Part shown: positions 7,862 through 56,831 of the stretch, in pieces | Numbering within the stretch: position 1 is the stretch's first letter | Layout: each line of letters opens with the position of its first letter | Sequence record: NC_042307.1 | Direction: 5' to 3' (one strand) | DNA: 64,000 nt | Origin: a phage | Translations under genes and position numbers: made by a program | The notes under the pieces: model-generated | What the model was told of the DNA's origin: nothing | Databases searched by the model: none | The model's input: only the letters and a program-made list of their open reading frames with translations

Positions 7862-8133
7862 TTTTTCTTTAATTGCTTAACTTCACGCTCAAAGCTAGCT
7901 GCTCGGCGTTCTGCCACTGCTTGATGCTCCTTAGCAAAGCGTGCCTCTTGTTTTGCTAAGTTAAAGGCCATAGCGTTCTTGTTAAGAGAATCGTACATCT
8001 TTTTCATTGCTGGGATGGACATTTTCATCAGTTGCCCCTCAAATCCTTGCATGTCGAGGAAAATTGCTAATACATTGGCCATTTCAGTCTTGGTAAGGTT
8101 AGAGGCGTCGAAGTCTTTAGTCATGTTTTCCAT
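7858..8133 (-). CDS. hypothetical protein
   Basis: ATG 8133 preceded by GAGAGAGGAAA RBS. Confidence 0.45.
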   Translation of the reverse strand: MENMTKDFDASNLTKTEMANVLAIFLDMQGFEGQLMKMSIPAMKKMYDSLNKNAMAFNLAKQEARFAKEHQAVAERRAASFEREVKQLKKK

Positions 8134-14937: not shown

Positions 14938-15470
14938 TTATTAAGTTCCTCTAAAGTTGGTAAAGATTTTGTAGAATCAAAAGTTTCTACAACAGCATTT
15001 TCACCATGCAACTGTAAACGAAGTTCATTGGCTCTTTTAACTGCCAACTCTAAATCTAGGTATCTAAAGGAGCCTCCATACATATTAGTACCTCTAAAAT
15101 TAGCAACATTTACTTCCCACTTCTGGTCACGTTTCCTCCAGCTAATTCCTAGATAACCAGATTTACTTCTAGTAGCTTTATTTCTCTGGTTTTCTTGATT
15201 ATTAGACTCTCTAAGATTTACCCAACGATTGTCGCTCCTTACGCGGTTTATGTGATCTACCATCTCAGGAGTATAGCCCTCCATATAAAGGAATGCTAGC
15301 TGATGTGCCAGGTAGGGTTTTCCATCTACCTTTATTTGTATATATCCATCTTTCCTAAGTGTACCTGCGATATTACCAGCTTTTTGATTACCAACAGCCA
15401 CTAACCTAATAAATAATCCAGTATCAGGGTTATATTCAAGTAATTCCTTTAATCTTTCTTGTATTACCAC
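14934..15470 (-). CDS. HNH homing endonuclease (MVIQERLKEL family)
   Basis: Paralog of 7325..7861. Confidence 0.7.
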   Translation of the reverse strand: MVIQERLKELLEYNPDTGLFIRLVAVGNQKAGNIAGTLRKDGYIQIKVDGKPYLAHQLAFLYMEGYTPEMVDHINRVRSDNRWVNLRESNNQENQRNKATRSKSGYLGISWRKRDQKWEVNVANFRGTNMYGGSFRYLDLELAVKRANELRLQLHGENAVVETFDSTKSLPTLEELNK

Positions 15471-16917: not shown

Positions 16918-17414
16918 TAGCCTGTACTCGCAAACTCACCGTGGAGTTCTTTGAGTTTGGTATCCCGCCATTTTATAGCCTCTTCCAAACTCTTAAGTGT
17001 TTTCGAAACTTGCTTACCATGTTTGGTAATTCTTACTTGGTAAGTCCCATTTGTTTTTCTATGGATATTTTTAACGCCTAAATGGTTATCGCTTCTTACT
17101 TTTTGGTTACAAGCATTATCAGATCTTGTAGCAGGCCTTAGATTCTCAAATCTATCATTAGTTGAGTCTTTGTCCTTGTGATCAACTATTTCAGGCCATT
17201 CTCCAGTATGCCATGCATAGATTAATCTATGTGCCCCTATAGCTATGGAACCATTATATAGTTCAACTACTCTATGCCCTGTACTTTGTCTAGATCCTGC
17301 TACTGTTCCGGCGAATATCTTATTAAAATGTTCGTCCCCTTCCCTGGGTTTCCAGATAAGATTACCATCTTCTTGGTAATCGAAGATTCTTCTTAGCTCT
17401 TCCTTACTGATCAT
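16917..17414 (-). CDS. HNH homing endonuclease
   Basis: 'EIVDHKDKDSTNDRFENLR' motif. Confidence 0.65.
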   Translation of the reverse strand: MISKEELRRIFDYQEDGNLIWKPREGDEHFNKIFAGTVAGSRQSTGHRVVELYNGSIAIGAHRLIYAWHTGEWPEIVDHKDKDSTNDRFENLRPATRSDNACNQKVRSDNHLGVKNIHRKTNGTYQVRITKHGKQVSKTLKSLEEAIKWRDTKLKELHGEFASTG

Positions 17415-17638
17415 CTTTTCATATTCCTAAAAGAAGTAACAGTATCAAATCCATGTGCAGCTAAGCGATCCTTATCGGAAATCGTAATAGTATTTGGTTC
17501 ACCGGTTCCTAACACGCCCCAGATATATTGCTCGATCATCTGGTGTAAACGGTATAAGTTACTTTCAATTTCCTGCCACGGAATACCTGACTGATGGAAA
17601 CGAATGTTAGTCTGAATCACGAAGTTACGAATCATCAT
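17411..17638 (-). CDS. hypothetical protein (75 aa)
   Basis: ORF. Confidence 0.35.
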   Translation of the reverse strand: MMIRNFVIQTNIRFHQSGIPWQEIESNLYRLHQMIEQYIWGVLGTGEPNTITISDKDRLAAHGFDTVTSFRNMKR

Positions 17639-18111
17639 CGTTATCGTTCTTCTTGATACCTTTCACATACGCAATCGGTACACGCAGTTCGGACAAGATA
17701 CGTTCTGCTTTAGGTTTTGCTTCAACGAGCAAATCACGCATTGTTTCACGAACATCTCCACGACTCTTATCCATTAGGTAGGAGCGAGCATGCAATCCCA
17801 TCTCTTCCATTTTATCGAACATAGTGTCGAGGTCGAACGTTTTAAAGCTAAACGCTGGATGCCAGCAGTACAACTCGGTGTAACCAGTAAACTTCACCTG
17901 CAACAAACAGTGGGTTTACAAAGTATTCGAAGTCGCCACGGAAAGATAGTGAACCTTCACGAAATACTTGGCGAGTATGCACAATGTTCTTTTCTGCATC
18001 ATCAGTTACCTTAACCAGTAACTCTTCAGTTTTACGCTCCCAAACACGATCGGGGTCAAACAAACTGTTCTGCAAATCATACACATCTGCGAATTTAGAA
18101 ATGATCCTCAT
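17625..18111 (-). pseudogene. hypothetical gene split across two overlapping frames (possible frameshift or two genes)
   Basis: ORFs 17848..18111 and 17625..17906 overlap in different frames; second begins with TTG. Confidence 0.3.
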
Positions 18112-19005: not shown

Positions 19006-19331
19006 TTCAGATCCTTTTCATTAATTAAAATATTTGTAAATAATGGGGTATTCCCCAAGCACATGGTAGGGCCAAATGTATTCATGGCTACCCATAACTG
19101 CATGGTTATCATACCGTCTTTAATCGCCGGATCTTTATACTCCTCGATACGTTTCTTGGCAAAAGCAACTATGTCTGGATTATTTTTATTTTCCTGAATA
19201 TAGTCATGCCAAAACTGGGTATTCTCACTACGTAGGAATGTTAAAATATCCTTAGTTGCTGGAATCTGCACTGTGCTGTTGATGTTTAGTCTTTTCACGT
19301 TCTTCTCTCTGTTATTCTTTAGGAAACCCAT
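19002..19331 (-). CDS. hypothetical protein (109 aa)
   Basis: ORF. Confidence 0.4.
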   Translation of the reverse strand: MGFLKNNREKNVKRLNINSTVQIPATKDILTFLRSENTQFWHDYIQENKNNPDIVAFAKKRIEEYKDPAIKDGMITMQLWVAMNTFGPTMCLGNTPLFTNILINEKDLK

Positions 19332-19821
19332 TAAACTCTTCGATGACTGCTAGAGTTCCGTGCAATTCTAATCGTAATCCATTAGCTTTGTATACTGCAG
19401 ATTCTAAGTCTTCATAATCGAATAGACCACCGTAAACTCTAATACCTTCGTTATTATTAGTATAAACTCTCCATTTCTGGAGATGAGTATCCCAAGATAC
19501 TCCTAAGTATCCCGAATTGCTAGTAGCAGTCCTATTTCTATTATTTTCCTGCCTAGAACTATCTCTGAGATTACTCCACCTATTATCATCCCTAATTCTA
19601 TTGATATGATCAACAAATTCAGGAATATACCCTTCCATAAACAAGAAGGCTAATCTATGCGCTAGTTCCCTGTGTCCATCTCCAACTCTAATCTGAATAT
19701 ACCCATAGTTATTAGGCTTATTATTTATAGGTTTTATTCTACCACTTTTTAGACGTCTAGAAAATAATCCTGTTTCTGGATCATATATCAGCAGTTCTTT
19801 TAACCTTTCTTGTGTAATCAT
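19312..19821 (-). CDS. HNH homing endonuclease
   Basis: 'EFVDHINRIRDDNRWSNLRDSSRQEN'. Confidence 0.7.
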   Translation of the reverse strand: MITQERLKELLIYDPETGLFSRRLKSGRIKPINNKPNNYGYIQIRVGDGHRELAHRLAFLFMEGYIPEFVDHINRIRDDNRWSNLRDSSRQENNRNRTATSNSGYLGVSWDTHLQKWRVYTNNNEGIRVYGGLFDYEDLESAVYKANGLRLELHGTLAVIEEFNGFPKE

Positions 19822-21698: not shown

Positions 21699-21883
21699 TA
21701 GCTCTCCTGTTTGGTAGTTAGTAGTGGATTTGAACCACTGTAGTCGCTCCGTATGAAGGAGGTGCATAACCACTCTGCCAACTAACTATTATGTTTTACT
21801 AGACTAAGTAAGTATTCTTTGTACTCTTTAGACCAATTAGCTTTTTTAAACTTTCCTGGACGCATAGTCTTAATTCCTAAATT

Positions 21884-21960
21884 TGGTACTCCGGGAGGGA
21901 TTTAAACCCCCGATCTCTCGGTTATCAGCCGAGTGCTTTAGATCGCTAAGCTACCGAAGT
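21884..21960 (-). tRNA. tRNA-Ile (anticodon GAU)
   Basis: Hand-folded cloverleaf; CCA encoded. Confidence 0.6.
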
Positions 21961-21975
21961 ATTAAAATATTTACA

Positions 21976-22266
21976 TCACACACTTTCTAAGTAAGAAGTA
22001 TAATGGAATTTAGTTTCTCCAGTCTTATCTACTTCTACCTCAGTTCGTGGTACTTGACGAACTACACCATGAATCATCTTATAGCGAATGCCTTTAGCTG
22101 GTTCATGATCTTTTGGAAATACTTGTTTAACCGTTACTACTTTATATCCTTCACGCGGTGTTAACACTACTACTTGATCACCCTCTTTGATTTTCCAGGA
22201 GGGTGGAAATTCATAGGTATATCTTTGACCACCAGTTTGGAATACTACAGAAAGATAACGTTTCAT
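21976..22266 (-). CDS. hypothetical protein (96 aa)
   Basis: ORF with upstream promoter-like sequence. Confidence 0.4.
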   Translation of the reverse strand: MKRYLSVVFQTGGQRYTYEFPPSWKIKEGDQVVVLTPREGYKVVTVKQVFPKDHEPAKGIRYKMIHGVVRQVPRTEVEVDKTGETKFHYTSYLESV

Positions 22267-22340
22267 TTGGTTTCCCTCTCATTAATTTATATAATTATTA
22301 TAACAAGAAATAAGAGAGAATGCAAATGAATTTTTAAATT

Positions 22341-22415
22341 TGGTGCTCCCACCAGGAATCGAACCCGGTTCAGATGCTTACAAGGCAACTGCATCGCCAG
22401 CAATGCTTTAGGAGC
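22341..22415 (-). tRNA. tRNA-Thr (anticodon UGU), one mismatch in anticodon stem
   Basis: Hand-folded; CCA encoded. Confidence 0.5.
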
Positions 22416-22435
22416 GATGATCCCGTTATTTCAAC

Positions 22436-22600
22436 GGGATTTCTTTTTCAATAACAGGAGACTTATCAGTCATAACTGTCATAGCCAACTGCTGAAGAAA
22501 CTCGAAAGTTAGCTTTAAACGTTCTTCACCTAATTCAATCTCAACGTATTTCTTTTGCTTGTCAACCTTTAATTTTAGGTTATCAGCCATCTTCTGATTC
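22436..22600 (-). CDS. small hypothetical protein (54 aa, below track cutoff)
   Basis: ATG 22600 to TAA 22436; 'MADNLKLKVDKQKKYVEIEL...'. Confidence 0.3.
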
Positions 22601-22804
22601 TCGTTGCTCGGCTACTGCTAGCCAGTCTGGTAAAAGAAACTTAGTACGAAACTCTTCATAAGATTCTTCTGGATAAAAGCTAAAACCTCCTTTCTCATCA
22701 TTCAAGATAACAGAGCCGTCAGTTTGTTCATACGCTCGATATGTTTCTCCAATAATGATAACTCGCTTATCAGTACTTTTATTACGAAACTCAAAAACGT
22801 GCAT
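22583..22804 (-). CDS. hypothetical protein (73 aa)
   Basis: ORF. Confidence 0.35.
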   Translation of the reverse strand: MHVFEFRNKSTDKRVIIIGETYRAYEQTDGSVILNDEKGGFSFYPEESYEEFRTKFLLPDWLAVAEQRESEDG

Positions 22805-22818
22805 TGTGTTTCCTTATT

Positions 22819-22893
22819 TGGTGCGGGATACGAGAGTCGAACTCGTGTTTACTGGTTGGAAGCCAGTTATTCTAGCCACTGAACTAATCACGC
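22819..22893 (-). tRNA. tRNA-Gly (anticodon UCC)
   Basis: Hand-folded; CCA encoded. Confidence 0.6.
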
Positions 22894-22900
22894 ATTAATT

Positions 22901-22984
22901 TGGCTGGAGAAGGAGGATTCGAACCTACGTACCTTCCGGTTATGAGCCGGGTGCTCATACCATATGGGCTTGAGAACCAGAATT
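22901..22984 (-). tRNA. tRNA-like element, anticodon loop 'CUCAUAA' (CAU), acceptor stem noncanonical
   Basis: T-arm and CCA present; 5' acceptor does not pair. Confidence 0.3.
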
Positions 22985-23073
22985 TGGCGGAAGAAGTGGG
23001 AATCGAACCCACAAGGCTATATTTCAAACCGACAGATTAGCAATCTGCTGCAAAACCGTTCTGCTATTTTTCC
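22985..23073 (-). tRNA. tRNA-Ser (anticodon GCU), class II with long variable arm
   Basis: Hand-folded; CCA encoded. Confidence 0.55.
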
Positions 23074-23093
23074 GGATTTATAAATATATTATA

Positions 23094-23612
23094 TTAGAAA
23101 TTTAGCTTCATGGCAAGAAAATTTTTCAAGTTTTCGGTAGACATCTCATCCACATCTATAGGAGAAACAAACCCATTTAATTGTTTAGCAAACTTTTCGC
23201 CAGCAGGATCATTATCCCCAACAGCTACCAATTTAAAAGGTAGTAATTTCAATTGCTTTAATAGCGGTTTTCCTGGAGAAGAACCCAACATTGCTAGAGC
23301 AGGATACCCAGCATTATGTAATGCTACAGCCTTAAATACAGATTCAGCAATTAATACTACTTTTTCATCCCCATTGAGAGTTTCTAGTCCCCATACACAC
23401 TGTGTAGTAGAATAAGTAAAATATCTAGCTTCAAAGGGGCACTTACCATGACCTTTTGGAGCAGAAGGATTATAAGTCTGATAGCCTCTCAACATTCCAG
23501 AGAAGTCATACAATGGGACTGTTAGCCATCCTTCTGGGCTTAACCAGCAGTGATATTTATCTGTATCAAACCCTCTAGATAAGAGATGTTCTGTTAGTTC
23601 ATCAATAGTCAT
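23094..23612 (-). CDS. Toprim-like domain protein
   Basis: 'VVLIAESVFKAVA...VAVGDNDPAGEKFA'; ATG 23612 with GAGAGG RBS. Confidence 0.4.
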   Translation of the reverse strand: MTIDELTEHLLSRGFDTDKYHCWLSPEGWLTVPLYDFSGMLRGYQTYNPSAPKGHGKCPFEARYFTYSTTQCVWGLETLNGDEKVVLIAESVFKAVALHNAGYPALAMLGSSPGKPLLKQLKLLPFKLVAVGDNDPAGEKFAKQLNGFVSPIDVDEMSTENLKNFLAMKLNF

Positions 23613-23831
23613 ACTAGATTCCTCTCTCAAATTTATAAATATATTATGCAGAGAATTTAGCATTCAAGCAATTGAATTTTTTAACTTTTTAGAGGAAAAT
23701 CACAGGATGCTTAAGGGTAGCAGGTAAGTGGGTAGACCCCAAAATTGTTATCCCCACTTGATTTTCAATGTGATATAGTGTAAAGTATTTGTCATAGCTG
23801 AGTGACCAAAGAGACACACTTATCCTCTACC

Positions 23832-23873
23832 TTAAAACAGAAAAGCCCTGCGCTCTCCAGGGAACACAGGGCT
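23832..23873 (-). terminator. Rho-independent terminator
   Basis: Stem AGCCCTG/CAGGGCT, 'tttctgtttt' in minus sense. Confidence 0.55.
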
Positions 23874-23897
23874 TACTTCGAATATTACGTGTGGGAA

Positions 23898-24845
23898 TTA
23901 CTTGTTACGCATATCCATAATCATCTGGCCATCGTAACCAGTGCCAACTACTGTTTGAGGTACACCGCCTTGATATTTCTGAGCACGAATCATTTCAACT
24001 TCTAGTTGTTTCCAGCGAATCATCTCAGGAGTAATAGTACGTTGCAGAGCGGCGTTAGCTTCGGCTTCCTTCTTAGCTGCGTACAGTTTAGCATCTGCAT
24101 CACGTTCGTTTGCAATAGCTTGGTTGTTACGAGCTTCACGATCTGCTTCTGCTTGTTTAACCTTCTGCTGTGCTTCTTGTTCAACACGAGCCAACTCAGC
24201 TTTCGCAGCATTAACTTGTTCCTCACGAACTTTGGTATTCTGTACCTGTTCCATGATTACAGGCGGCAAAGTAATATCCTGAAGGAACACTTGCTTAACT
24301 GTGTAACCATAAGGGCGTGCATACTCTTCAACTTCCTGTTGAATTGCGGTTTGTAATTGAGCCTGGATTTTAGCATCAAACAAATCTTGTGCTTTAGGAA
24401 CAGACTTACCGAACTCACGAATAGTGGACAGTAATTTTTCAGTTACATATTTGTCTAATGCTTGATCCTGGGTACCTGCGTTAATACGGTTAATCGGTGC
24501 CTTAGAACCATCAAACTGCAACATAACAGTCAGGTCAACAGTGGATTTAAACTTATCCTGACTAGGAACCTGAAGTTTATCTAATTTTACAGCAATGTCT
24601 TTTGTACTAAAAGTATCGAAAGATGCAAATGGGTTTACAAGATGAAAACCAGGTAATACAGGATTAGGGTCTACTTTACCCAGAAATGTTTGGGTTTTAA
24701 CCGTACCATCAGAAACAATAGTATATGAATTAAAAGCTAGGATTAAACCTGCTAAACCAACTACAGCACCAATACCCCAACGTTTAATAGTGCGGATTAC
24801 TTTTTGCTCAGAAGTCAGTTCTTTCATATTTTTAGTATTAAACAT
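23898..24845 (-). CDS. SPFH/band-7 (prohibitin/HflC-like) membrane protein
   Basis: N-terminal TM, long Ala/Glu/Gln-rich coiled coil; AAGGA RBS. Confidence 0.55.
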   Translation of the reverse strand: MFNTKNMKELTSEQKVIRTIKRWGIGAVVGLAGLILAFNSYTIVSDGTVKTQTFLGKVDPNPVLPGFHLVNPFASFDTFSTKDIAVKLDKLQVPSQDKFKSTVDLTVMLQFDGSKAPINRINAGTQDQALDKYVTEKLLSTIREFGKSVPKAQDLFDAKIQAQLQTAIQQEVEEYARPYGYTVKQVFLQDITLPPVIMEQVQNTKVREEQVNAAKAELARVEQEAQQKVKQAEADREARNNQAIANERDADAKLYAAKKEAEANAALQRTITPEMIRWKQLEVEMIRAQKYQGGVPQTVVGTGYDGQMIMDMRNK

Positions 24846-24879
24846 ATATTTCCTTTGTTTTAGTTACAGTTAATAAAAT

Positions 24880-24954
24880 TGGCCGAGGTGACAGGATTCG
24901 AACCTGCATAAAGGAATTTAGAAGACTCCTGCCTCTCCCTTAGACTACACCCCG
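24880..24954 (-). tRNA. tRNA-Arg (anticodon UCU)
   Basis: Hand-folded; CCA encoded. Confidence 0.55.
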
Positions 24955-25608: not shown

Positions 25609-26091
25609 CTAACCAAAGTTAGTAAATTCTTTATGTAAGGATTCTCTTAATATCTTAGAGGCCTCGAAAGCCTCTTCCGCAGTTTTAAACCCTCTTTTAC
25701 TGTAATTTTTTCCTTCATGTCTTACTTGGTATCTCCAGGAAGAGCCTTCCCAACTTACTCCTTTGTACCCAGAAGTATTATTGCATTGTTGGTTTCTATT
25801 CGCATTATTTTGCGATCTAGAGGCGTCCCTTAGATTATTTTTCCTATTATTTCTAGGATTAGTATCCTTATGATCTACTTCTTCAGGCCTATATCCATAG
25901 TACATAATAAATAATAAGACATGCAGTTGATAGGTGTCGCCCTGAAATCCCACATCTGGATGTGATTTCTTATTATTGGCACAACACTCTTTCAAACCTT
26001 TCTTTGTTTTCCTATATAGTATCCCATTATCAGGATCAGCTACAAAATATTTTTCAAGTATTTCTTTAGTAGGGTATTCTTTCCTTTTCAT
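25609..26091 (-). CDS. HNH homing endonuclease (F-Tfl-like, adjacent to tRNA cluster)
   Basis: 'EEVDHKDTNPRNNRKNNLR'. Confidence 0.6.
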   Translation of the reverse strand: MKRKEYPTKEILEKYFVADPDNGILYRKTKKGLKECCANNKKSHPDVGFQGDTYQLHVLLFIMYYGYRPEEVDHKDTNPRNNRKNNLRDASRSQNNANRNQQCNNTSGYKGVSWEGSSWRYQVRHEGKNYSKRGFKTAEEAFEASKILRESLHKEFTNFG

Positions 26092-27278: not shown

Positions 27279-28100
27279 TTAAAATAGATCATATTCTAAT
27301 CTATTGGGATTTTCTCGGTATCCATAAGACGTAAGAGTACCCCTCATATACTCTGCGTCAACAGGATTAGATGTTACTAGAACCACTTTTAGTGGTCTTT
27401 GACCTAAAAATAGTATATGATCTAATAAGTCTTTTCCTTGTACCTCTGGATCTCCTAAATCTGAGTCCATAAATAAATAGGATCCTGTGAAACTAAATAT
27501 ATCTGATAGCTCCAGCGCACCTATAACTGTACGACAAATAATGGACATTTCAGGTAGATCTCTAACATCGTCTATTAGAATATTGGTCTGCTTCCCAATT
27601 TCTGCATTACATAAACCATTTACTAGTTTTTCTCTTTCCCCTTTAGCTTGTTCGAAAGTGGTGAAGCCAGGAGATACGAAAAACTTTCCACCTAATGTAA
27701 TGCTATACACAAAACCCTCGGGGAGGAGTTCTACACCTACGGTTTTATTAGTATTAATCCTATTTAACTTAAAATTTGTCTCTCTTAGATTAATAATTCT
27801 GTTATCCCACGGTATAGTATTTATATGGTCGATCATATAAGGCGGCTCTTCACCATAATGGAGCAACCACGCTATTCGGTGTCCATAAATAATTGTGGGT
27901 TTATTATCTAAGAGCAAACTAACTCTGATGTACCCATCAGAGTTCTTACTACATATTTCTCTCCCAGCATATAGGGTGTGCCAAGTTTTATTCTTGTATT
28001 TATTAGGCCTATAAAATAATTTACCGGTATAAGGATTATACTCTATAATTTCTCGAATATAATCTATATATGGTAGTATTTGTTTTTGTAATTTACCCAT
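27279..28100 (-). CDS. HNH-like N-terminal domain fused to unknown C-terminal domain
   Basis: 'GHRIAWLLHYGEEPPYMIDHINTIPWDNRIINLRE' then about 120 aa with 'ILIDDVRD...LFMDSDLG...VVLVTSNP'. Confidence 0.5.
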   Translation of the reverse strand: MGKLQKQILPYIDYIREIIEYNPYTGKLFYRPNKYKNKTWHTLYAGREICSKNSDGYIRVSLLLDNKPTIIYGHRIAWLLHYGEEPPYMIDHINTIPWDNRIINLRETNFKLNRINTNKTVGVELLPEGFVYSITLGGKFFVSPGFTTFEQAKGEREKLVNGLCNAEIGKQTNILIDDVRDLPEMSIICRTVIGALELSDIFSFTGSYLFMDSDLGDPEVQGKDLLDHILFLGQRPLKVVLVTSNPVDAEYMRGTLTSYGYRENPNRLEYDLF

Positions 28101-31447: not shown

Positions 31448-31924
31448 TCACATCTCAGCCATTTCAGCTTCAGTAATAACTGTGTTACACAATGCATCTA
31501 CAGCTTCATTACCACTAATACCAGAATGTCCTTTAACCTTAATAAAGGTAGGGTTAGTATTATGAAAGTTGATATACTGCTGTGTTAATTTAAATGCTTC
31601 CTGCCAAAGTTCTAGATTAAGAGGAACTTCACCATCTGCTTTCTTCCAGCCTTTCCTTTGCCAAGAAAACATCCAACTTTCCATACCATTTTTGCAATAA
31701 GCAGAATCAGTATAGATAACAATTGGCCTATTATCTTTTTTAACTGACCAACGTAGAGCCTCTACAATAGCCGTGAGTTCCATCTCATTATTTGTAGTTT
31801 TAGGACTATATCCAGATTTAGAACCTAAACGATCGTCGTTATCATCATAGACAATAAAACCCCAAGCACCGGGACCTGGGTTAGACTTACAAGCACCATC
31901 TGTGTAAATGTGGAATGTACTCAT
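31448..31924 (-). CDS. rnh: ribonuclease H (RNase HI-like)
   Basis: 'IYTDGAC..NPGPGAWG', 'YTDS'. Confidence 0.7.
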   Translation of the reverse strand: MSTFHIYTDGACKSNPGPGAWGFIVYDDNDDRLGSKSGYSPKTTNNEMELTAIVEALRWSVKKDNRPIVIYTDSAYCKNGMESWMFSWQRKGWKKADGEVPLNLELWQEAFKLTQQYINFHNTNPTFIKVKGHSGISGNEAVDALCNTVITEAEMAEM

Positions 31925-32466
31925 TTATTAAGATCCTCTAAGGTAGGATAATAGTTATTATAAAATGTTTCTTCTACAGCATCTTTACCATGTAACTCAT
32001 GTCGCAAGGTATTTGCTTTTAATACGGCGTTCTCTAAATCTAGATATTCGAATATTCCACCATAAATATTCTTACCCTCACTATTTATTATCTGTACTTG
32101 CCACTTTTGTAGCTGCTTATTCCAATGTACTCCTAAGTACCCTGATTTGCTAGAGGCAGTGCAGTTTCTATTATTAATTTGACTAGTAGATTCTCTTAAA
32201 TTTTTCCATCTATTATCTGACCGTATACGATTTATATGATCTACTAAGTCAGGAATACTTCCTGTCATATACAGAAATGCCAGTCTATGGGCTAGATAAT
32301 CTACCTTATCTATTTTTATAGTTATATAACCATCTTTTCTTAAATAGCCAGCAACTGCTCCGGCTTTACCTCCCCTACCTCTACTTATTTTATTAGTAAA
32401 TATTCCAGTATCGGGATCATAATTTAGAAGTTCTTTTAATCTCTCTAGTGTCGGTTGTTTACTCAT
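31921..32466 (-). CDS. HNH homing endonuclease
   Basis: 'DLVDHINRIRSDNRWKNLR'. Confidence 0.7.
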   Translation of the reverse strand: MSKQPTLERLKELLNYDPDTGIFTNKISRGRGGKAGAVAGYLRKDGYITIKIDKVDYLAHRLAFLYMTGSIPDLVDHINRIRSDNRWKNLRESTSQINNRNCTASSKSGYLGVHWNKQLQKWQVQIINSEGKNIYGGIFEYLDLENAVLKANTLRHELHGKDAVEETFYNNYYPTLEDLNK

Positions 32467-32842
32467 CCAACCACCCTAAATCCATACTAAGAAGCGCTTT
32501 TAATCCAGTTATTCCACTTCCATAAGTATCATAACGAATAGCTGTTCTACTTTTCACTTCTAGAATATCTTCATGTTCTGTGTTTTCTAGGATTTCGGTA
32601 GAAATCCCCAAGTACCCTACTTGGTCCTCCTCATCCCACCCCATATCCTCTAGAAGATTTAGAGATAGTTCTACTCTTTCATCTCCATTACCTACGGAGT
32701 AGTATTCCTCTAGTTTTTTAAACTTTAAAACTAGAGAATCTAGAATTAGTAGGATTTGTTCCTTAGTAATAGTTTCTTTATCACCCTGCAAGTAATTGGA
32801 GTAATTCAGAAGGGCTTGTTCTAATTCAATTTCTTTACTCAT
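32459..32842 (-). CDS. hypothetical acidic protein (127 aa)
   Basis: ORF. Confidence 0.4.
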   Translation of the reverse strand: MSKEIELEQALLNYSNYLQGDKETITKEQILLILDSLVLKFKKLEEYYSVGNGDERVELSLNLLEDMGWDEEDQVGYLGISTEILENTEHEDILEVKSRTAIRYDTYGSGITGLKALLSMDLGWLDE

Positions 32843-33783: not shown

Positions 33784-34316
33784 TAATAAGTAACCAATTC
33801 CTGTACAAATCGCAGGCTGTTATCACTGTTTGCGCCAACTGCATAGACTAATCGAGTGGATTCATAGTTATAATCCAGTATCATACTATCTAGGTGTATA
33901 TCTGCCTCTAGCTTCTGTTCACTAAAGATTGTAGATACAAAAGCACTTTCAATATGCCCATGTTGATACATTTCTAGAAGAAGATTAGCTCCACCTAGAA
34001 CTACTGTTTGCTGATCTTTTAGAAAAGTAGGTAATGTATCACCTATCATTGATATGGGAGTGTAAATATCATGTGTAATATCGTCTGGCAGTGGACGATC
34101 AGCACGAATAAATAGGTCAGAAGCTCCAATCATACGTTCCCTAACGGCATATGGAAGAGCTAAATAAGTACCTGCCCCAATAATAATATTATCAGGATTT
34201 AGTACATCTAATTGTGAATAAAAAGCATCTAGTTCTTCTTTAAAAGAACCCCAGGGGAGCTTACCTCGGAGGCCGAACTCCCCATTCGGCCCAACTGCAT
34301 ACATTGCTGTAATCAT
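33783..34316 (-). CDS. frd: dihydrofolate reductase
   Basis: 'MITAMYAVGPNGEFGLRGKLPW'; position next to thyA. Confidence 0.7.
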   Translation of the reverse strand: MITAMYAVGPNGEFGLRGKLPWGSFKEELDAFYSQLDVLNPDNIIIGAGTYLALPYAVRERMIGASDLFIRADRPLPDDITHDIYTPISMIGDTLPTFLKDQQTVVLGGANLLLEMYQHGHIESAFVSTIFSEQKLEADIHLDSMILDYNYESTRLVYAVGANSDNSLRFVQELVTY

Positions 34317-35459
34317 AGGAAGTCTCCAAATTCATTACCCAAATCTTTCAAGGTATCAGTAGAGGTCTCAGTTACCTGACCTACACGGTAGGCTGCACCA
34401 ATCTGGATTTCTTGTGGGGCAGGCTGTAGAGAAGTAGTATCCAACCAGTTCATGATCCACGGAATAGGGTTTTTAGTGATTACTGGTAAGTGACTAGGCC
34501 ATTCTACACCAATGTGCATAAATGCGTTACGCCCCACAAAGTACAAGTATTCTTCTAGAAGTTCTGCATTCAAACCAATCAGACTACGACCTTTGAAGAT
34601 GAAATGACCCCATTCAATTTCAGTTTTAAGAGTTTTCAGGAGTTGTGCTGGTGCTTTAGCCACTGCTTCATCTACCAGATCTTTGTCAAACTGCTGGAAC
34701 ATAATCTGGATGATTGTTTTAGACATCTGAGTATGTAGGGCTTCATCTTTAGCAATCAATTGCAGATTTTTAGCAATACCTTGCAGAATATCGTTCTCTG
34801 CTAACGCAAAGGTACATGCAAAGGATGCGTAGAACTGCATTGCTTCCAGACCGTAGATTGCAAAATAAGCATCTAACAGTTTAGCCTGAGTTTCACGCTT
34901 AACCTCAGGGAACTCAGTTTCTGGATATGTATTGTCACCACGATGATCACGTACTGCGATGAAATACTGACCTAACTGGTACAGTTCATCGAACAGCTCA
35001 ACAGAATCAGCGATACGTGCGAATGCTTCTTGGTTTTTGGTTACAGAATCAATAAATTCTGCCGGATCAGTCAGCACATTACGAATAATATTACTATAAG
35101 CACGACTATGCAGGTCTTCAAAGTAGCTCCACTGCTTGAGCATACCTTCTAGTTCTGGACGACTTACAAGCGGCATAATAGCTGCTTCAGGCGCTCGACT
35201 GATAAAGGAATCAGTTTGGGTCTGCCATGCTAAGTTCAGGAGTGTGATTTCCTGAATTTCACGTGGGAGATTGGGCCATTGTTTCTTATCTGCTTCCAGA
35301 CTGATTTCAGTTTCAGTCCAAAATTGAGAGCGTTGCAGAAGTGCCAGACGTTCTAGTTCTGGATGTGCTACACGTACATAATCTGCGATACCTAGAGAAT
35401 CGCCCCAGGAAAAGATCAGCGTTAGTATGATCCCAATTCAGGTTTAGTAAAGTAGTCAT
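34313..35459 (-). CDS. nrdB: ribonucleotide reductase small subunit NrdB, interrupted by apparent +1 frameshift near 35401-35404
   Basis: Track ORF 34313..35176 carries 'FYASFACTFALAE', 'DEALH'; N-terminal homology continues upstream in same frame to 35437, but RBS+ATG at 35459 is in another frame. Confidence 0.6.
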
Positions 35460-35594
35460 TGATTTTCCTCTTTCTCACTATTTCAGGAATATTATAGCAA
35501 ATCAGGTAGCGATTAGCAGGTAAAATTATAAACTATCAAGCTCCAATAGTTTCATATCGCGCCACTCTATAGCATCCTCAAGTTCTTGGAATGT

Positions 35595-36017
35595 TTAAGT
35601 ATATTTTACACCTTTACGGGCTATCTGTACCTGGTAAGATCCGCTAGCTTTTGGATGAATATTTTTAATACCTAACTTATTATCTTTATGCGCCCCGACA
35701 TTCTTTCCGTTACTGAATCTATCAGAAGCTACTAGGTTAATAGCTCTATTATCATGTCGTATTCTATTGTCGTGGTCTACTTCAGGTGGCAGATACCCAT
35801 GAATTTTAGCAAAGATTACCCTATGTGCTAAGTAGGGGTATCCTTTAATATTTAATACTATATATCCTGTAGATTTATCTAAGGAGCCTGCTGGTTTTCC
35901 GGCATATTTGGTATTAAATGTTTTATTATCTCTAGGTCTATGAGTTAATATTCCAGTATATGGATCATAATCAAATAATTTAGCTACCTCTAGATGATCT
36001 TCTAATGTTTTTGACAT
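35595..36017 (-). CDS. HNH homing endonuclease inserted between nrdA and nrdB
   Basis: 'PEVDHDNRIRHDNRAINL'; ATG 36017. Confidence 0.6.
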   Translation of the reverse strand: MSKTLEDHLEVAKLFDYDPYTGILTHRPRDNKTFNTKYAGKPAGSLDKSTGYIVLNIKGYPYLAHRVIFAKIHGYLPPEVDHDNRIRHDNRAINLVASDRFSNGKNVGAHKDNKLGIKNIHPKASGSYQVQIARKGVKYT

Positions 36018-36082
36018 AATTATAATTTCCAACCAATTAGTATAAAAAATAAGAGGGTTATAATTAACCCTCTTTACTAGTT

Positions 36083-38410
36083 TTATAAGGTACAGCCACC
36101 TGAAGAACATCCTGTAGTTTCTCCAGCTCCTCCACCATTCGCAGTGTTAAAGTTAGCATAATACCAGGTTTTTATACCATACTTAACCGCAGTCATAAAG
36201 TCACGAACTACTACTGGGCCAGGGATGATTTCATTCTCGAATTTAGAGTAATCATAATACATCTGGAAACTTGATGACTGACTCAAGAATTTTTGGTAAA
36301 CGGCGTTCCATTTGATCCACTCAGTGCGATCAATATCATAAGCTAGTTTATAGCTCATTAACGTTTCCCAGTCGGTTGCACCTGGAGCAATTGCAATTAC
36401 TTTATTTACTGCACTACCTTTGATAGATACAATCTTACGAGGTGGTTCGATAGAGTTAGTAACACCTAACAGAACAGAAGAACTTTCTCCCGGCATCTGA
36501 GCAGTCAGAACAGAGTTACGCATACCATATTTCAGAATATCTGCACGCAGAGACTCCCAATCCATTTCTAGACCTACGGATACCAGTTCATCAACAGTTT
36601 TCTTGTACGTGTCGATTACCAGAGTTCCTTTAGATGGTTTAGTACGATCGAACCATTCACATGCACCTTGCTCTTTGGCTAGACGTACAGAGGCTTTATG
36701 CAGGAAGTAGGACAATTTTTCAGCTTCACGATGAATCCAGTTACGAGCCTCAATACCTTCATAAGCCAGACCTTCTGCTGCCATTGCACCTGCTGCGTTC
36801 ATCAGACCAATACCAACGTTACGACGTTTCTTAGCCGTATATTCCATAGTTGGGAACGGGTAATCCTGAATTTCAATGATGGTATCAACAAATTTCAGAA
36901 GAATATAGCAAGTCTTTTCCCACTCAGCCAGAGATTCCATGCGTCCTAATACAACACCACCTAAGTTACACAGAGATACTTCCCCAATATCCTCCGGCTT
37001 CATTTGATCGAGTTGTTCTTTTGTTTTATACAGTTCCGTGATATGATGGAACGGGCGTGTAGGCTGAGTAATTTCAACACAAAGGTTGGTCATACGAATC
37101 GGGTCAAGGAAGTTACCATGACGGTTAGATTCACCAATGTGATGAGCATACATACGCCCTGTTTCCATACGGATACGTAACCAAGTATCTAGGATTTCTT
37201 TTGCAGAGATTCTAGGAGCTGCTGGAATTGTTTTTCCTTCGTGGTCGGTCTTTGTAAGAGATGCCACACGTTTCTCCGCTGCCACGTAGATTTCTTCAAA
37301 CTTAGCCTCATCTTCACCATAAAACGCTTCATGAACTTCTGGTGCGTAGAAGTAGGACATTAGCGTAATATCTTCGTTTTTCAGGTAACGTTTTAACAGA
37401 AGGTTGTTAAAGCTCAGAGAATAATCCATCTTATCGATTTTATTCTCGTCTGTAGCACGTTGCTGCTTAACCTGCATCAACTGAATGATTTCAGGATCGA
37501 AGTATGGATAAGACACAGTAGCAGAACCGCCACGGGTTTGCTGAGTGTTAGCTTTTACTGAACGGTCAATGTGTCGATAATATGGCAGTTTTCCGGAATG
37601 CGGGAATGCCCCATTTCGCACCGGATCAGCAATTGATCGGCTTTCAAGATGATACCCGATTCCCGCTCTGGCTGCGACCATTTTGAAGACGATGTGCTCG
37701 GCTGTGTCGATTGAATCCAACGTGTCAGTGGAATCCACGAGGCAGCAACTAGCAAATCCACGGTCACTAGAACGCAAACCAACCAGTGGCGGCGTAGGAA
37801 CGTTGATTTTGTGGAGCGACATTGCATTGTAGAGATCGATTGCATCTAGAATTGTCCAGTTGGGTTGAGATAACATCGCCATTGCCATGCCCATATAGGC
37901 AAATTGCGGGGTTTCGTAAATTTCACCAGTGGCTATATTACGACGGGAATATTTATCAAAGAACTGTTTCAGTCCACCACTAGTAAAAAGACGGTCACGA
38001 TCGTGGTCTATAACCTGATTCAGAGCTTCAAATTGCTCATCGGTAATCCATGCACTCATGTCTTCCCATGCACCTACACTAACCATATGATCGTGGAAGA
38101 AGCGTAGAGAAGGTGGTTCGAAGGAATCATAAAGGCGTTTACGCATCTGCGCAAGACGTAATTCCTTTGCTGGCACGTCGTATGCTGGATTATCTTTAAT
38201 AAGACTTTCGGCAGCTTTAATTAACGCATCCATCAGAGTATCGGAATCTACAACCCCTTTAGGCAGAGTTTTTTGAGCAGCCATAGTAATGGCAGACCAA
38301 CTTACATCAACTGTTTTGCAACCATACTCTGCCCAACCATTGAGTTTTTCAGGAGCAAAGTCTTCTACAGTACCGTCACGTTTAATTACTTTTTCAATGC
38401 GATGGCTCAT
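36083..38410 (-). CDS. nrdA: ribonucleotide reductase large subunit NrdA
   Basis: ATP-cone N-terminus, 'CNLG', C-terminal Cys pair; ATG 38410 with AAGGA RBS. Confidence 0.8.
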   Translation of the reverse strand: MSHRIEKVIKRDGTVEDFAPEKLNGWAEYGCKTVDVSWSAITMAAQKTLPKGVVDSDTLMDALIKAAESLIKDNPAYDVPAKELRLAQMRKRLYDSFEPPSLRFFHDHMVSVGAWEDMSAWITDEQFEALNQVIDHDRDRLFTSGGLKQFFDKYSRRNIATGEIYETPQFAYMGMAMAMLSQPNWTILDAIDLYNAMSLHKINVPTPPLVGLRSSDRGFASCCLVDSTDTLDSIDTAEHIVFKMVAARAGIGYHLESRSIADPVRNGAFPHSGKLPYYRHIDRSVKANTQQTRGGSATVSYPYFDPEIIQLMQVKQQRATDENKIDKMDYSLSFNNLLLKRYLKNEDITLMSYFYAPEVHEAFYGEDEAKFEEIYVAAEKRVASLTKTDHEGKTIPAAPRISAKEILDTWLRIRMETGRMYAHHIGESNRHGNFLDPIRMTNLCVEITQPTRPFHHITELYKTKEQLDQMKPEDIGEVSLCNLGGVVLGRMESLAEWEKTCYILLKFVDTIIEIQDYPFPTMEYTAKKRRNVGIGLMNAAGAMAAEGLAYEGIEARNWIHREAEKLSYFLHKASVRLAKEQGACEWFDRTKPSKGTLVIDTYKKTVDELVSVGLEMDWESLRADILKYGMRNSVLTAQMPGESSSVLLGVTNSIEPPRKIVSIKGSAVNKVIAIAPGATDWETLMSYKLAYDIDRTEWIKWNAVYQKFLSQSSSFQMYYDYSKFENEIIPGPVVVRDFMTAVKYGIKTWYYANFNTANGGGAGETTGCSSGGCTL

Positions 38411-39800: not shown

Positions 39801-40670
39801 GTGGAATGCCCGAAAAAATTAACTCAAGAAGAAGTAGATAAATGCCTAGCCGAGCGTGGTTTTACTATGGTGGATAAGCCATATCAAAATTCTAGGTATA
39901 GGCATACGTATCAGTGTGAATACGGTCACCAATGGACAGCTAAATTTGACGCTATTAGGAATGGAAAGACCAATTGTCCTACTTGCTCTATTAGTAGCCG
40001 TAAACTAGATATTGATAAAATTAATACTATATTACAGGACAGAGGTATTACATTGTTGAACGGCTATAAAAATAGTGCCGATATAAATACTAAATTTAGG
40101 TGTGTTTGTGGTCATGAGTGGGCTACTACACTTAATAGTATAATTAATAGAGGTAGTGGCTGCCCATCTTGTGCTGCTAATAAACAGAAACTTAGTGTTA
40201 ATACTATAAATGATCGTCTTGCTGCCAGAAATATCAGAATAGTGGGTGAGTATAGTAATGCGAATACTAAGACCGCCTTTCTTTGTGGTGCAGGGCATAG
40301 GTGGGAAGCTACTCCAGGGTCTGTATTAAGGGGGAACGGTTGTCCTTACTGTAGTTATAGAGATTTAGAAAGTACTAGGATATATGTTATGTATAGCCCC
40401 TCACATGGGGTTAAAATAGGTAGGTCTAACAATCCAGAGCGTAGACTTCTACATATTAGATCTAGTAGCCACCTTATTGATTTGGAAATAATTAAAGTAT
40501 TTGAAATTGGGGAATATAGTAGTGCAGTTCGAATAGAAAAATTAGCCCATAACTACTTTAAAGAGCAGAATTGCCAGTACAAAGATTTTGACGGCGCTAC
40601 GGAATTCTTCAATATTGAACCAAAAGTAGCTATAAAGTTTATCGAGGAAATAATCAATGACAGAGAATGA
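39801..40670 (+). CDS. T5orf172/GIY-YIG-like endonuclease with four zinc-ribbon repeats (GTG start)
   Basis: Repeated 'C.C.H.W....GCP.C'; 'RIYVMYSPSHGVKIGRS'. Confidence 0.55.
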   Translation: MECPKKLTQEEVDKCLAERGFTMVDKPYQNSRYRHTYQCEYGHQWTAKFDAIRNGKTNCPTCSISSRKLDIDKINTILQDRGITLLNGYKNSADINTKFRCVCGHEWATTLNSIINRGSGCPSCAANKQKLSVNTINDRLAARNIRIVGEYSNANTKTAFLCGAGHRWEATPGSVLRGNGCPYCSYRDLESTRIYVMYSPSHGVKIGRSNNPERRLLHIRSSSHLIDLEIIKVFEIGEYSSAVRIEKLAHNYFKEQNCQYKDFDGATEFFNIEPKVAIKFIEEIINDRE

Positions 40671-45804: not shown

Positions 45805-46257
45805 ATGTCATTCACACAGCAAGAACTTTTAGATAACTTCCGGTATGAAGAGGGTAAGTTATTTAGAACTACAGGAAGAAATGCAGGGAAAGAATGTTGT
45901 GTTTCTACGGGTAACGGATATTATCGTATATCTCTAGGGAATAGGACTATGCTTCGGCATAGAGCAATATTTTTAATGCATCATGGATACTTACCTGATT
46001 TAGTAGACCATGTGAATACTATAAAAGGTGATGATCGTATTGAAAATCTTAGAGAGCAGACAGTATCCGGTAATCTAAGAAATATCAAATATAAGAAAGG
46101 AATGCATGTTTACCCTTCTGGTAGTAAGAACTGGCAAGTGGTATTTACTATTAACCGTAAACGTATAGTTAAAGGAACATATGACAACTATGAGGTTGCA
46201 TGTTCTATGGCCAAGATGTTTAGAGGTCAATTATACGGTAGGGAATCAATCCAGTAA
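45805..46257 (+). CDS. HNH homing endonuclease
   Basis: 'HRAIFLMHHGYLPDLVDHVNTIKGDDRIENLR'; ATG 45805 with GGAGGTGAGG RBS. Confidence 0.6.
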   Translation: MSFTQQELLDNFRYEEGKLFRTTGRNAGKECCVSTGNGYYRISLGNRTMLRHRAIFLMHHGYLPDLVDHVNTIKGDDRIENLREQTVSGNLRNIKYKKGMHVYPSGSKNWQVVFTINRKRIVKGTYDNYEVACSMAKMFRGQLYGRESIQ

Positions 46258-46790
46258 AATTTCATTTGCAAGGGAGTATTATTTTATAGTATAATATTCC
46301 CATAAATGAGAGACATTAGTAAAAATTGATTTTGCTAATTTTTCTTGTTTACAATCCGCGATACGGAACAGTTAGGCTGCCCCATTAAGGGTTGTTTTAA
46401 CTATTACTAGTGTTTATATTGCATTAGTTAATCTTCAATTAAGTGATCTGTGTACCCTGAATTCGGAAAGGTAAATCCAAACCGTGCATATTTAGCTCGT
46501 TATATAGGCAGAGTTTTATATGGGGGTGCGAACGAAAAGAGCAGCGAATGGCGGCACGTACAGTAGTCACCTACCAATAGGATAGTGAGGACAAATAGAA
46601 TCGGCTTAGCGGCCAATGACCTAGGTTCTATTCTGTATATGAGCGAAGAGAGCACAGCACTGAGATATGATAACTTATTCATATTGTTTGATGATAATTG
46701 ATGTTTACGTAAATAGTAGTAATAGTTGTTCTATTCTTTCTGAATAGTCCTAAAGAAAAGATTTCGATTAACCAACACAGGAGTATTGTT

Positions 46791-49580: not shown

Positions 49581-49792
49581 AAAATGGGAAACAAGGAAGT
49601 TTCCAGTAAAAGAACGTAAAGTTCCTGTTTATGATACTTCGGAGAAGCTATGTAGGGTGGTTCCTGCTAGACTAGCATCCATAAATGGCATAGGCGCATG
49701 GTTGCTAAAGCAGAGAAAGCAAAGCATATCATTACGTATATCTTTTGAGTTAGACCAAATCTATAGAGAATTGGGAGAATTGATTAAAGAAA

Positions 49793-50251
49793 ATGATAAC
49801 ACAGGAAGAGGTTAGAGAGGCTTTTGAGTATGATCCTGAAACAGGCCATCTTAAATGGAAGAAAACAAGACAGAAGAGTCTAGTAGGTAAGTTTGCCGGT
49901 GGTAAACATAAAGGGTATATAAGAATAGGGTTTAAGCGTAGGCACTGGGGAGAACATCAGCTGGTATTCTTATATCATAAGGGGTACATACCAGAAGAGA
50001 TAGACCACAAAAACAGGATTAAAGATTGCAACTTTATAGAGAATTTAGAAGACTCCAATAGATCTAAGCAAATGCACAATATTAATGTACGTAAAGACAA
50101 TAAGTTGGGTGAGCCTAATATCTACATGAGGGGCGATAAATATTGTGTGCTAATGCAGAAAGGATCTATTCGTAAGTACCAGCAGTGCAATACTATAGAA
50201 GAGGCTAAAAAAGTTAGGGCTAATTTTAAGTCCGAACTCTATCCAAATTAA
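49793..50251 (+). CDS. HNH homing endonuclease
   Basis: 'EEIDHKNRIKDCNFIENL'. Confidence 0.55.
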   Translation: MITQEEVREAFEYDPETGHLKWKKTRQKSLVGKFAGGKHKGYIRIGFKRRHWGEHQLVFLYHKGYIPEEIDHKNRIKDCNFIENLEDSNRSKQMHNINVRKDNKLGEPNIYMRGDKYCVLMQKGSIRKYQQCNTIEEAKKVRANFKSELYPN

Positions 50252-55358: not shown

Positions 55359-56831
55359 ATGACCTTGTTTAACGTGCAAGCTGTAGTGTTGAAGATGCTT
55401 CTAGCTTCCGAACAGAAGCAAATAGCATTGGAAACATTCTCAAAACTGCATAAAGATCATTTTAATGACGCTTTCTCCTCAATTTACCAAGCCGTCCAGA
55501 ATTATTATAAAAAATATAACACAATGCCGTCCATTGACGCACTGATGCTTGAGGCTAATAGGAACGCCCGCCTTTCTCAAGCTCTAGTCGTTTTAGCTAA
55601 CACTCAAATTCCAGAAGTTAGCATGGAACAGGCACTTGAAGTCCTAGAGGCCGAGTATACGCAGGATTTATTCCTGAAGCTTCTAGAAACAGACGTGCTT
55701 CAAGATTTAACAATGCTGGATCAGGGAGAAATTCTTAACCGAGTTGCCTCCCTTCACTTAAAATTAGAAGAGAAAGTAACGAATACTGGAAAAGTATTCA
55801 ACGCAGATAACATGCGTATTTTCCAGAGAGAAGAAGATACCAAACTGAACTTAATCGCTCTTGGTATTTGTAATGAGTTCGACGCTCAAATTGGTTTAGC
55901 TCGCACAGAAACGTTACTGCTTGGTGGTTGGCGTGGTACTGGTAAATCCATTATCTGTTCAAACATACAGGTTCAGCAATATTTGAATGGAGATATTGCT
56001 CCATACTTCTCAATTGAGATGAAAGAACATGAAGTATTTAGACGTAATCTAGCCATGTTAGCTGGTGTATCAGCACTAGCAATGCGTAATAATACTCTAG
56101 AAGGTGCAGCTCTGTTGAGATTAGCCAGAACTAGAGCTAGAATGTTTAACGGTGGTGAAGAGCTTTTCGATAACTTCGTTAAACAATACACAATGGCTAA
56201 GATGAGTGATTTCTACGATATGGAAAGTAAGCTAATAGAAGGATATGAGCTACATACTCCTATGATTATTGTTTATGATCCTGAGCTGTCTATTACAACA
56301 GTTGACGTAGAATTAAATAAATTAGTTGCTAGATATGGGGATAAAGTTACAGTAGCTTTACTTGACTATATTAACCAAACCCGACTTCCAGATTCTAAAA
56401 CCATTGATATGTATGACTGGAAAGAACAGATGGTTGTTAGCTCGTCTTTCAAATCCCTCTGCCAGAAACATAACGTGGCTGGTGTAGCTCCTTACCAGAT
56501 TGATCAAGATGGTAGAACACGTATGTCAAAAGGGATTCTTGATTCCGCAGACATGGCTGCTAATCTTAATGCTGCAAAAGCTGATAATGGTCAAGGTGCT
56601 ATTATGTTTGACTTCGTTAAGACCCGTTCTTCTGATAGCGTGAAGTTTATGCCTAAAATGAACTGGGAAACCCTGCGGATGGATAACACTACCAACCTAG
56701 CAATGGAAGATATATCTCAAATGGAAGCTGAGTTCGTTATCCCTATTGAGAAGGATAAGCCAGCTCAATCTAAACGTGCTAAGAAAGACAAAGCTGAAAA
56801 TTCAACAGGTGAACAGGCCAGCGATATATGA
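55359..56831 (+). CDS. DnaB-like replicative helicase
   Basis: Walker A 'GGWRGTGKS'; ATG 55359 with AAGGAGA RBS. Confidence 0.6.
   Translation: MTLFNVQAVVLKMLLASEQKQIALETFSKLHKDHFNDAFSSIYQAVQNYYKKYNTMPSIDALMLEANRNARLSQALVVLANTQIPEVSMEQALEVLEAEYTQDLFLKLLETDVLQDLTMLDQGEILNRVASLHLKLEEKVTNTGKVFNADNMRIFQREEDTKLNLIALGICNEFDAQIGLARTETLLLGGWRGTGKSIICSNIQVQQYLNGDIAPYFSIEMKEHEVFRRNLAMLAGVSALAMRNNTLEGAALLRLARTRARMFNGGEELFDNFVKQYTMAKMSDFYDMESKLIEGYELHTPMIIVYDPELSITTVDVELNKLVARYGDKVTVALLDYINQTRLPDSKTIDMYDWKEQMVVSSSFKSLCQKHNVAGVAPYQIDQDGRTRMSKGILDSADMAANLNAAKADNGQGAIMFDFVKTRSSDSVKFMPKMNWETLRMDNTTNLAMEDISQMEAEFVIPIEKDKPAQSKRAKKDKAENSTGEQASDI

Follow-up and report, generated by a model that had tools for sequence, protein, structure and literature searches.

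It is textbook knowledge that the ribonucleotide-reductase genes of T-even phages have homing endonuclease genes as neighbours. The mobE gene lies between nrdA and nrdB of these phages (Wilson & Edgell 2009, PMC2790892), and in T4 the order is nrdA-mobE-nrdB.1-nrdB. MobE is a small, free-standing HNH endonuclease of 141 aa with a classical PF01844 domain; its gene has no promoter of its own, and a hairpin inside the gene limits its expression. The gene is patchily distributed among relatives, flanking ribonucleotide reductase (RNR) sequence is inherited together with it, and its mobility has been demonstrated experimentally (PMC2790892). The enzyme nicks T2 nrdB at nt 122-126, and by the logic of this system co-conversion extends from the break to the insertion (PMC2790892).

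Comparable insertions have been recorded in T5-like phages. The T5 annotation places hegH (putative HNH endonuclease P-TflVIII, T5.095) between nrdA and nrdB, and Niu et al. [quoted passage not shown] Orthologues of the gene studied here are annotated as homing endonucleases in EPS7, phC17, S124 and other phages. This kind of insertion is therefore common and already known, with annotations that go back to the T5 genome and a comparison with mobE from 2012. In the literature, no cleavage or homing test was found for the lineage described here or for any T5-like nrdA-nrdB endonuclease. The added value of the present analysis is modest and lies in a census of the slot, in two exact insertion points with a different linked flank each, and in a copy of the gene that was probably caught in decay.

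In this study, an HNH endonuclease ORF was analysed in the window, the whole 64,000-nt stretch of phage DNA (sequence record NC_042307.1), and all positions refer to it. We consider the ORF, with a probability of roughly 0.8, to be a free-standing homing endonuclease gene of the HNH_3/I-HmuI-like type that is carried in a mobile cassette and is decaying in this particular copy. The coordinates of the relevant features are collected in Table 1.

Table 1. [quoted passage not shown]
Feature	Position	Strand	Evidence
nrdB, class Ia small subunit, disrupted	34313..35459	-	ORF list, Pfam Ribonuc_red_sm, profile positions 75-271 only
nrdB promoter: -35 CTGCTA 35519-35514, 17-nt spacer, extended -10 TGCTATAAT ending 35491	35491..35519	-	T5 annotation, spacer alignments
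Dead 3' end of the endonuclease frame: TFQELEDAIEWRDMKLLELDSL plus ancestral stop, former AP2-like helix	35526..35594	-	
Premature TAA (ancestral AAA, Lys141), private to the window genome	35595..35597	-	five orthologues aligned, all A at 35597
Endonuclease ORF, HNH_3, lineage 'S1a', truncated to 140 aa (ATG at 36017, TAA 35597-35595)	35595..36017	-	Pfam, PHROG 99, orthologue identity
Terminator-like hairpin: 10-bp stem, 4-nt loop, AUUUUUU	36044..36074	-	terminator scan, RNA fold -16 kcal/mol, z=-2.1
nrdA, class Ia ribonucleotide reductase large subunit, 810 aa	36083..38515	-	Ribonuc_red_lgC E=1.1e-117, Ribonuc_red_lgN, annotated orthologues
Last ~120 nt of nrdA (C-terminal CxxxxC tail), co-inherited with the cassette; candidate target/immunity region	36083..36200	-	alignment, identity tracts

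The family assignment of the ORF is well anchored. A mechanical ORF list also gave a longer version starting from an ATG at 36110 inside nrdA; the start was placed at 36017 because annotated orthologues begin at the methionine of MSKTLE. The protein matches Pfam HNH_3 (PF13392) over residues 62-100 (35.9 bits, curated cut-off 24.8, E=5.7e-9) and PHROG 99 'HNH endonuclease' (E=1.8e-39), and it shares 97.9% amino-acid identity with an annotated 'homing endonuclease' of Salmonella phage phC17. These family matches and the neighbouring genes show that the ORF is no chance reading frame. A sequence-only reading of this DNA had proposed an HNH endonuclease gene between nrdA and nrdB in a T5-like background, and both points are borne out, the first by the Pfam, PHROG and neighbour-gene evidence and the second by matches of the region to 452 phage records (Demerecviridae, Markadamsvirinae).

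Six residues (D81, H82, N90, N94, N103 and N106) are invariant in seven homologues, and all of them are present in the window protein upstream of its stop, where they form the catalytic motif VDH...DNRxxNL...N..N (Asp-His, structural Asn, distal Asn). By analogy with I-HmuI, we take the Asp-His pair to provide the general base and an Asn to serve as metal ligand. I-HmuI, the HNH nicking endonuclease of Bacillus phage SPO1 (PDB 1u3e), shares only 15% sequence identity with the window gene; it is intron-encoded and carries a C-terminal helix-turn-helix rather than an AP2 domain. A full-length orthologue (P0001; 163 aa, 94% identical) was modelled with AlphaFold at a pLDDT of 81.7, from an alignment that was shallow because the word-indexed protein search gave only five homologues. 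The model contains an N-terminal domain, an HNH core (~64-107) with a beta-beta-alpha-metal fold resembling that of I-HmuI, a disordered linker, and a C-terminal unit made of three strands (117-143) and a helix (146-162). Pfam called no AP2 domain in the window protein or in the full-length orthologues, and Foldseek against the PDB returned nothing significant. On the basis of the model, the full-length form is predicted to combine an N-terminal domain, a beta-beta-alpha-metal nuclease core and an AP2-like DNA-binding domain at the C-terminus.

The comparison with MobE holds for position and fails for descent. The earlier suggestion of a MobE-like position was correct in that the same slot is occupied, and both genes are free-standing, small (140 aa in the window, 163 aa at full length), patchy among relatives and co-inherited with flanking RNR sequence. 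However, BLASTP between the two proteins gave E=19, and MobE belongs to PF01844 whereas the window gene belongs to PF13392, so that the window gene is not a member of the MobE family but only its positional analogue. The architectures also differ, since the classical HNH domain of MobE is replaced in the window lineage by HNH_3 with an AP2-like C-terminal domain, and the terminator is located upstream of the gene in the window cassette rather than inside it. Expression without an own promoter and limited by a hairpin may be a further likeness, as the sequence patterns comprise a terminator-like hairpin at 36051-36074 and no usable promoter match. The resemblance to MobE is positional and convergent.

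Within the T5-like phages, two kinds of relatives can be separated. T5 hegH, AKFV33 ORF96 and the SH9-type genes share with the window gene the nrdA-nrdB spacer, the HNH_3 domain and membership in PHROG 99, but they are only 33-34% identical to it and use a second insertion point. The genes of phC17 and S124 (window subtype; 96-98% protein identity) and those of EPS7, FFH1, SP01 and phiR2-01 (EPS7 subtype; ~78% protein identity) share its insertion point and cassette layout; they differ from it in that all are full length (160-163 aa), whereas the window copy carries a stop and private substitutions. Genes of the EPS7 subtype are sometimes labelled as T5 F-TflVI (hegF). This identity was rejected, as hegF is located elsewhere in T5 (T5.046) and is only 42% identical, and the label is a best-hit transfer. 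A separate hegF orthologue, 99% identical to that of T5, is present in the window at 16920..17420.

The anatomy of the slot was classified in 28 IMG/VR loci and in the window, phC17 and EPS7. In the empty order, the nrdA stop is followed by a terminator (GGAGATC-TTCG-GGTCTCC-T5), the nrdB promoter (TTGCTA, 17 nt, TGCTATAAT), the 5' UTR and the nrdB ATG. At Site 1, which is used by the window and EPS7 subtypes, another terminator and the endonuclease gene stand in place of the terminator segment, and homology picks up at AATTTTAC, just before the nrdB -35 box. Site 2 is used by T5 hegH, the AKFV33 type, the SH9 type and a related gene in a more distant phage; here the insert begins directly after TATAATAT and replaces the nrdB 5' UTR, and the endonuclease stop abuts the nrdB ATG. 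Being inserted immediately after the nrdB -10 box, the hegH, AKFV33 and SH9 types are the first gene from the nrdB promoter. Both sites were occupied at once in 0/31 of the loci examined. As judged from these alignments, the nrdA-nrdB spacer appears to be a general landing pad with two exact insertion points, used by at least five HNH_3 lineages.

In the window, the Site-1 cassette occupies the interval from the nrdA stop to the nrdB promoter, which in endonuclease-less relatives holds only a 38-nt terminator segment, and the cassette boundaries are identical in all carriers examined. Its hairpin, located after the nrdA stop and before the endonuclease ATG, takes the place of another terminator present in empty-site phages. 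Carriers are 97-100% identical over the last ~70-200 nt of nrdA, whereas their flanks are 75-95% identical. In the window subtype, the nrdA tail differs from that of all endonuclease-less phages by one codon deletion and by about nine substitutions over the ~33 nt that encode the CxxxxC motif; the last 68 nt of the window's nrdA find identity of >=95% only in the three S1a records, and all others reach <=82%. From these alignments, the mobile unit comprises the last ~70-200 nt of nrdA, the private terminator hairpin and the endonuclease gene. The nrdA segment at 36200-36330 was considered as an obligatory part of the cassette and rejected, as VEc33 and chee24, whose sites are empty, have the same haplotype and a fourth carrier lacks it. 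That segment (codons ~730-770) has two haplotypes with ~30% nucleotide difference (e.g. NAVYQ vs VATMQ), and the window type was found only in phC17, S124, VEc33 and chee24.

An own promoter for the endonuclease was also sought, and the sole match (36046-36019) cannot serve the ORF because it ends one base before the ATG. With no convincing promoter of its own, the gene may thus depend on transcription that passes the nrdA terminator, and its expression would be low.

The distribution of the spacer states was surveyed in T5-like records. The window subtype was found in 3 records (phC17, and S124 as two records; 93-96% nt identity) and the EPS7 subtype in 44 (~77% nt identity), which gives 47 of ~440 records for the window lineage. 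A complete empty spacer of 106 nt occurred in 252 records, T5 hegH in 75, the AKFV33 type in 33 and the SH9 type in 34. These states sum to 441, compared with 439-452 T5-like records found, and about 57% of the spacers are empty, 11% hold a site-1 lineage and 32% a site-2 lineage. The gene is therefore present or absent at one exact site among collinear relatives (47 vs 252 records). Its carriers belong to two genera, Tequintavirus (phC17, FFH1) and Epseptimavirus (EPS7, S124), and the same layout was seen in the fourth carrier, which comes from a Logan read-set assembly. In sliding-identity comparisons, the window, phC17 and S124 are 98-100% identical over ~35800-36325, a block that covers the 5' two-thirds of the endonuclease gene, the terminator and the nrdA 3' end; the flanks fall to 75-95%, and the dhfr region of S124 is only ~50% identical. 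The distribution is thus incongruent with phylogeny and the flank is co-converted, with general mosaicism as a confounder. A gene present in every relative and bare of any signature of mobility, the outcome that the sequence-only reading had named as contrary to its proposal, is not what the 47 of ~440 records, the two genera and the shared block display.

The confounder deserves attention in its own right. The gene may not be, or may no longer be, selfish, and a nuclease module could be shuffled passively by homologous recombination among T5-like phages; it might then be kept for marker exclusion, for DNA processing or for modulation of nrdB through the terminator. The mosaicism of these genomes is indeed extreme, as nrdA 37100-37600 is 100% identical to EPS7 and dhfr is 100% identical to VEc33, T5 and FFH1, so that ordinary homologous recombination could yield identity blocks and patchiness without an active nuclease. 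The ~14 HNH_3-like loci of the window make the family an abundant recombining gene pool, and recombination breakpoints are also found inside the endonuclease gene (S124 chimera). We nevertheless regard passive shuffling as improbable. The two insertion points are exact and are reused by at least five lineages whose mutual protein identity is only 33-42%, the variant coding sequence in the flanks is in tight linkage with the cassettes, and a location beside a conserved gene of an essential pathway is typical. Exact reused sites, flank linkage and a conserved-gene neighbour are classic signs of targeted invasion (PMC2790892, PMC10448857). Private changes that all alter the protein, as described below for the window copy, would be unexpected in a beneficial accessory gene.

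The two insertion points are associated with different flanks. In class-sorted alignments, Site-1 cassettes are linked to the variant nrdA tail and their nrdB 5' ends are ordinary, whereas Site-2 cassettes show no linkage to the nrdA tail but go with variant haplotypes at the start of nrdB (first ~125 nt). The Site-2 haplotypes of nrdB nt 1-125 are cassette-specific and densely substituted, end abruptly near nt 127, and were seen in loci L025 (T5), L012, L013, L023, L028, L017, L018 and L035. Phage SP01 (L015) combines the hegH-linked nrdB haplotype with a site-1 endonuclease.

Under the co-conversion logic established for MobE, linkage to the nrdA tail suggests that the target of the window lineage is most likely the nrdA 3' end or the adjacent terminator, rather than nrdB as in MobE (PMC2790892). 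The earlier proposal of a target in nrdA or nrdB can accordingly be narrowed: the linkage favours nrdA, and nrdB is not implicated for this lineage. The comparison covers a modest number of genomes, in which the nrdA tail of the EPS7 subtype is less distinctive than that of the window subtype. For the Site-2 enzymes, the probable place of action is the nrdB 5' end, close to the MobE nick at nt 122-126. Since the two exact insertion points are each tied to a different flank, they offer testable target predictions for uncharacterised enzymes.

By analogy with MobE and I-HmuI, the following mechanism can be proposed for the window lineage. In a mixed infection, the enzyme would nick or cut an endonuclease-less genome close to the insertion point, most likely in the conserved, relatively GC-rich nrdA 3' end or in the adjacent terminator. 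Repair by recombination with the carrier would then introduce the cassette together with the neighbouring nrdA 3' end. The carrier itself would be shielded from its own enzyme by its variant nrdA tail and its disrupted terminator. A broader picture is offered only tentatively. The spacer may hold two ports contested by at least five HNH_3 lineages. Those inserted at port 1 (between the nrdA stop and the nrdB promoter) would target the end of nrdA that encodes the essential CxxxxC tail, and those inserted at port 2 (immediately behind the nrdB -10 box) would target nrdB within its first ~125 nt, the part in which T4 MobE makes its nick (nt 122-126). If this is true, unrelated nucleases would have converged on the same RNR sequences in phage families that are themselves unrelated, and single-base lesions beside endonuclease genes, as in nrdB and the T5.047 homologue of the window, might be scars of break repair.

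The window copy of the gene is truncated, a defect absent from the sequence-only reading, which had remarked only on the nrdB frameshift. An AAA-to-TAA change at 35597 makes the window ORF 23 codons shorter than the 163-aa orthologues, and the old frame is still readable in phase past the TAA to the ancestral stop at 35526-35528. The stop falls within strand 3 (137-143) and the helix at 146-162 is lost, so that the window copy has no intact AP2-type domain of three-stranded sheet and helix. Four further private amino-acid changes distinguish the window from five orthologues, namely R58K (35845), Q122P (35653, at the end of the first AP2 strand, 117-122), and, beyond the stop, K144Q (35588) and an Ala/Thr-to-Met change at residue 155 (35554). 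An extra T in the T-run of the terminator (36049) is also private.

In all, the 492-nt endonuclease ORF carries 5 private changes, every one of them protein-altering, whereas the flanking genes have about 1 per 340 nt; our own Poisson estimate puts this excess at P ~0.02. A low-quality stretch was sought through clustered private substitutions in the flanking genes, and these were evenly spread at that rate. The pattern fits relaxed selection on a decaying element. A phage suppressor tRNA that would read through the TAA was ruled out, as none of the six tRNAs of the window has a UUA anticodon. Alternatively, the 140-aa protein might still be active and the element still mobile from the window genome. 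The nuclease core is intact, so some activity might remain, and the N-terminal domain and HNH core may suffice for target binding. Against this, every aligned homologue conserves the deleted helix as the second half of its AP2 fold, Q122P falls in the first strand of that fold, and the C-terminal segment appears to be functionally needed because it is >=95% conserved between the two subtypes. Retained activity is therefore unlikely, and the window copy is probably inactive and at the decay stage of the homing-endonuclease life cycle.

The neighbouring nrdB is also disrupted, which agrees with the frameshifted nrdB start reported beside the endonuclease in the sequence-only reading. The gene is split into a 48-codon N-terminal ORF (35313..35459) and a main body (34313..35176) owing to one extra G in the G-run 35403-35406, after codon 19. 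This G was found in 0/27 aligned relatives and is unique among 28 sequences. The frame of the nrdB ATG stops at 35313; nrdA is intact in the same phage. Rescue by re-initiation was considered and rejected, as no ATG, GTG or TTG stands in the correct frame before 35176. It is unlikely because this first restart is downstream of the codon that, in a hand-made alignment, we take to correspond to the iron ligand Asp84 of E. coli R2. At the nrdB promoter, for which T5 has an annotated promoter at the homologous place, the -35 hexamer has a private T>C at 35519 (TTGCTA in relatives), and a consensus promoter scan of the window did not call the site. The disrupted nrdB is either a real pseudogene or an assembly error.

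The same doubt extends to the endonuclease stop. If both the TAA and the +1 G in nrdB were sequencing or assembly errors, the real phage would have an active 163-aa enzyme and an intact nrdB. Both lesions are unique among all relatives examined, the nrdB insertion falls in a four-base homopolymer run, and the exact 140-aa or 171-aa product, sought in public assemblies as a means of separating error from mutation, was found in none of them. The homologue of T5.047 (17414..18111) is likewise broken into three frames by two single-base insertions, which indicates that indel errors may be present in the assembly. However, those two insertions are not in homopolymers, and the endonuclease defect is a substitution (A>T) outside any homopolymer. 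The four other private amino-acid changes in the ORF and the private change in the nrdB -35 box fit relaxed selection better than error. We thus judge error to be a minority explanation and prefer a real mutation in a decaying gene. For annotation, 35526..36017 should be recorded as a truncated (pseudo) homing endonuclease gene and nrdB flagged as frameshifted.

The T5.047 homologue (17414-18111, minus strand) has its single-base insertions at 17632 and 17877 and is located directly upstream of the hegF (F-TflVI) orthologue (16920-17420, minus strand). Both broken genes found in the window therefore adjoin HNH genes, which may reflect coincidence, sequencing error or repair scars.

The load of related elements in the window is very heavy, as ~14 loci in 64 kb have tblastn matches to T5-like HNH_3 homing endonucleases. 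These are located at 627-1109, 7328-7864, 10834-11355, 14937-15470, 16920-17420, 19315-19821, 25612-26091, 27621-28073, 31924-32466, 35529-36017, 45814-46323, 49784-50242, 56828-57355 and 62713-63243, and several of them have no counterpart at the same place in T5. A second HNH_3 gene at 31921-32466 (minus strand; 181 aa, Pfam E=1.3e-14) is 40-43% identical to the endonuclease described here and is adjoined by a 127-aa ORF (32459-32842, minus strand) with no Pfam match; the pair (31921-32842) sits between rnh and thyA, where T5 has only a promoter.

T5-like RNR genes attract several kinds of selfish element. A 289-aa ORF at 39801-40670 (plus strand) lies between phoH and nrdD, the anaerobic RNR gene, where T5 has only promoters; it contains T5orf172, MUG113 and CapR-homology domains with treble-clef zinc fingers (Pfam E ~1e-11 to 1e-15) and is a putative homing endonuclease of a second family. 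In Salmonella phage S124, nrdA is directly preceded by another HNH gene (L005 6451-6936), and nrdA of Escherichia phage SelmaRatti (MZ501103) is annotated as intein-containing. The tRNA cluster of the window phage is strongly reduced, with only six tRNA genes (Met, Ile, Thr, Gly, Ser and Arg) at 21712-24954, compared with ~25 annotated in the homologous region of T5.
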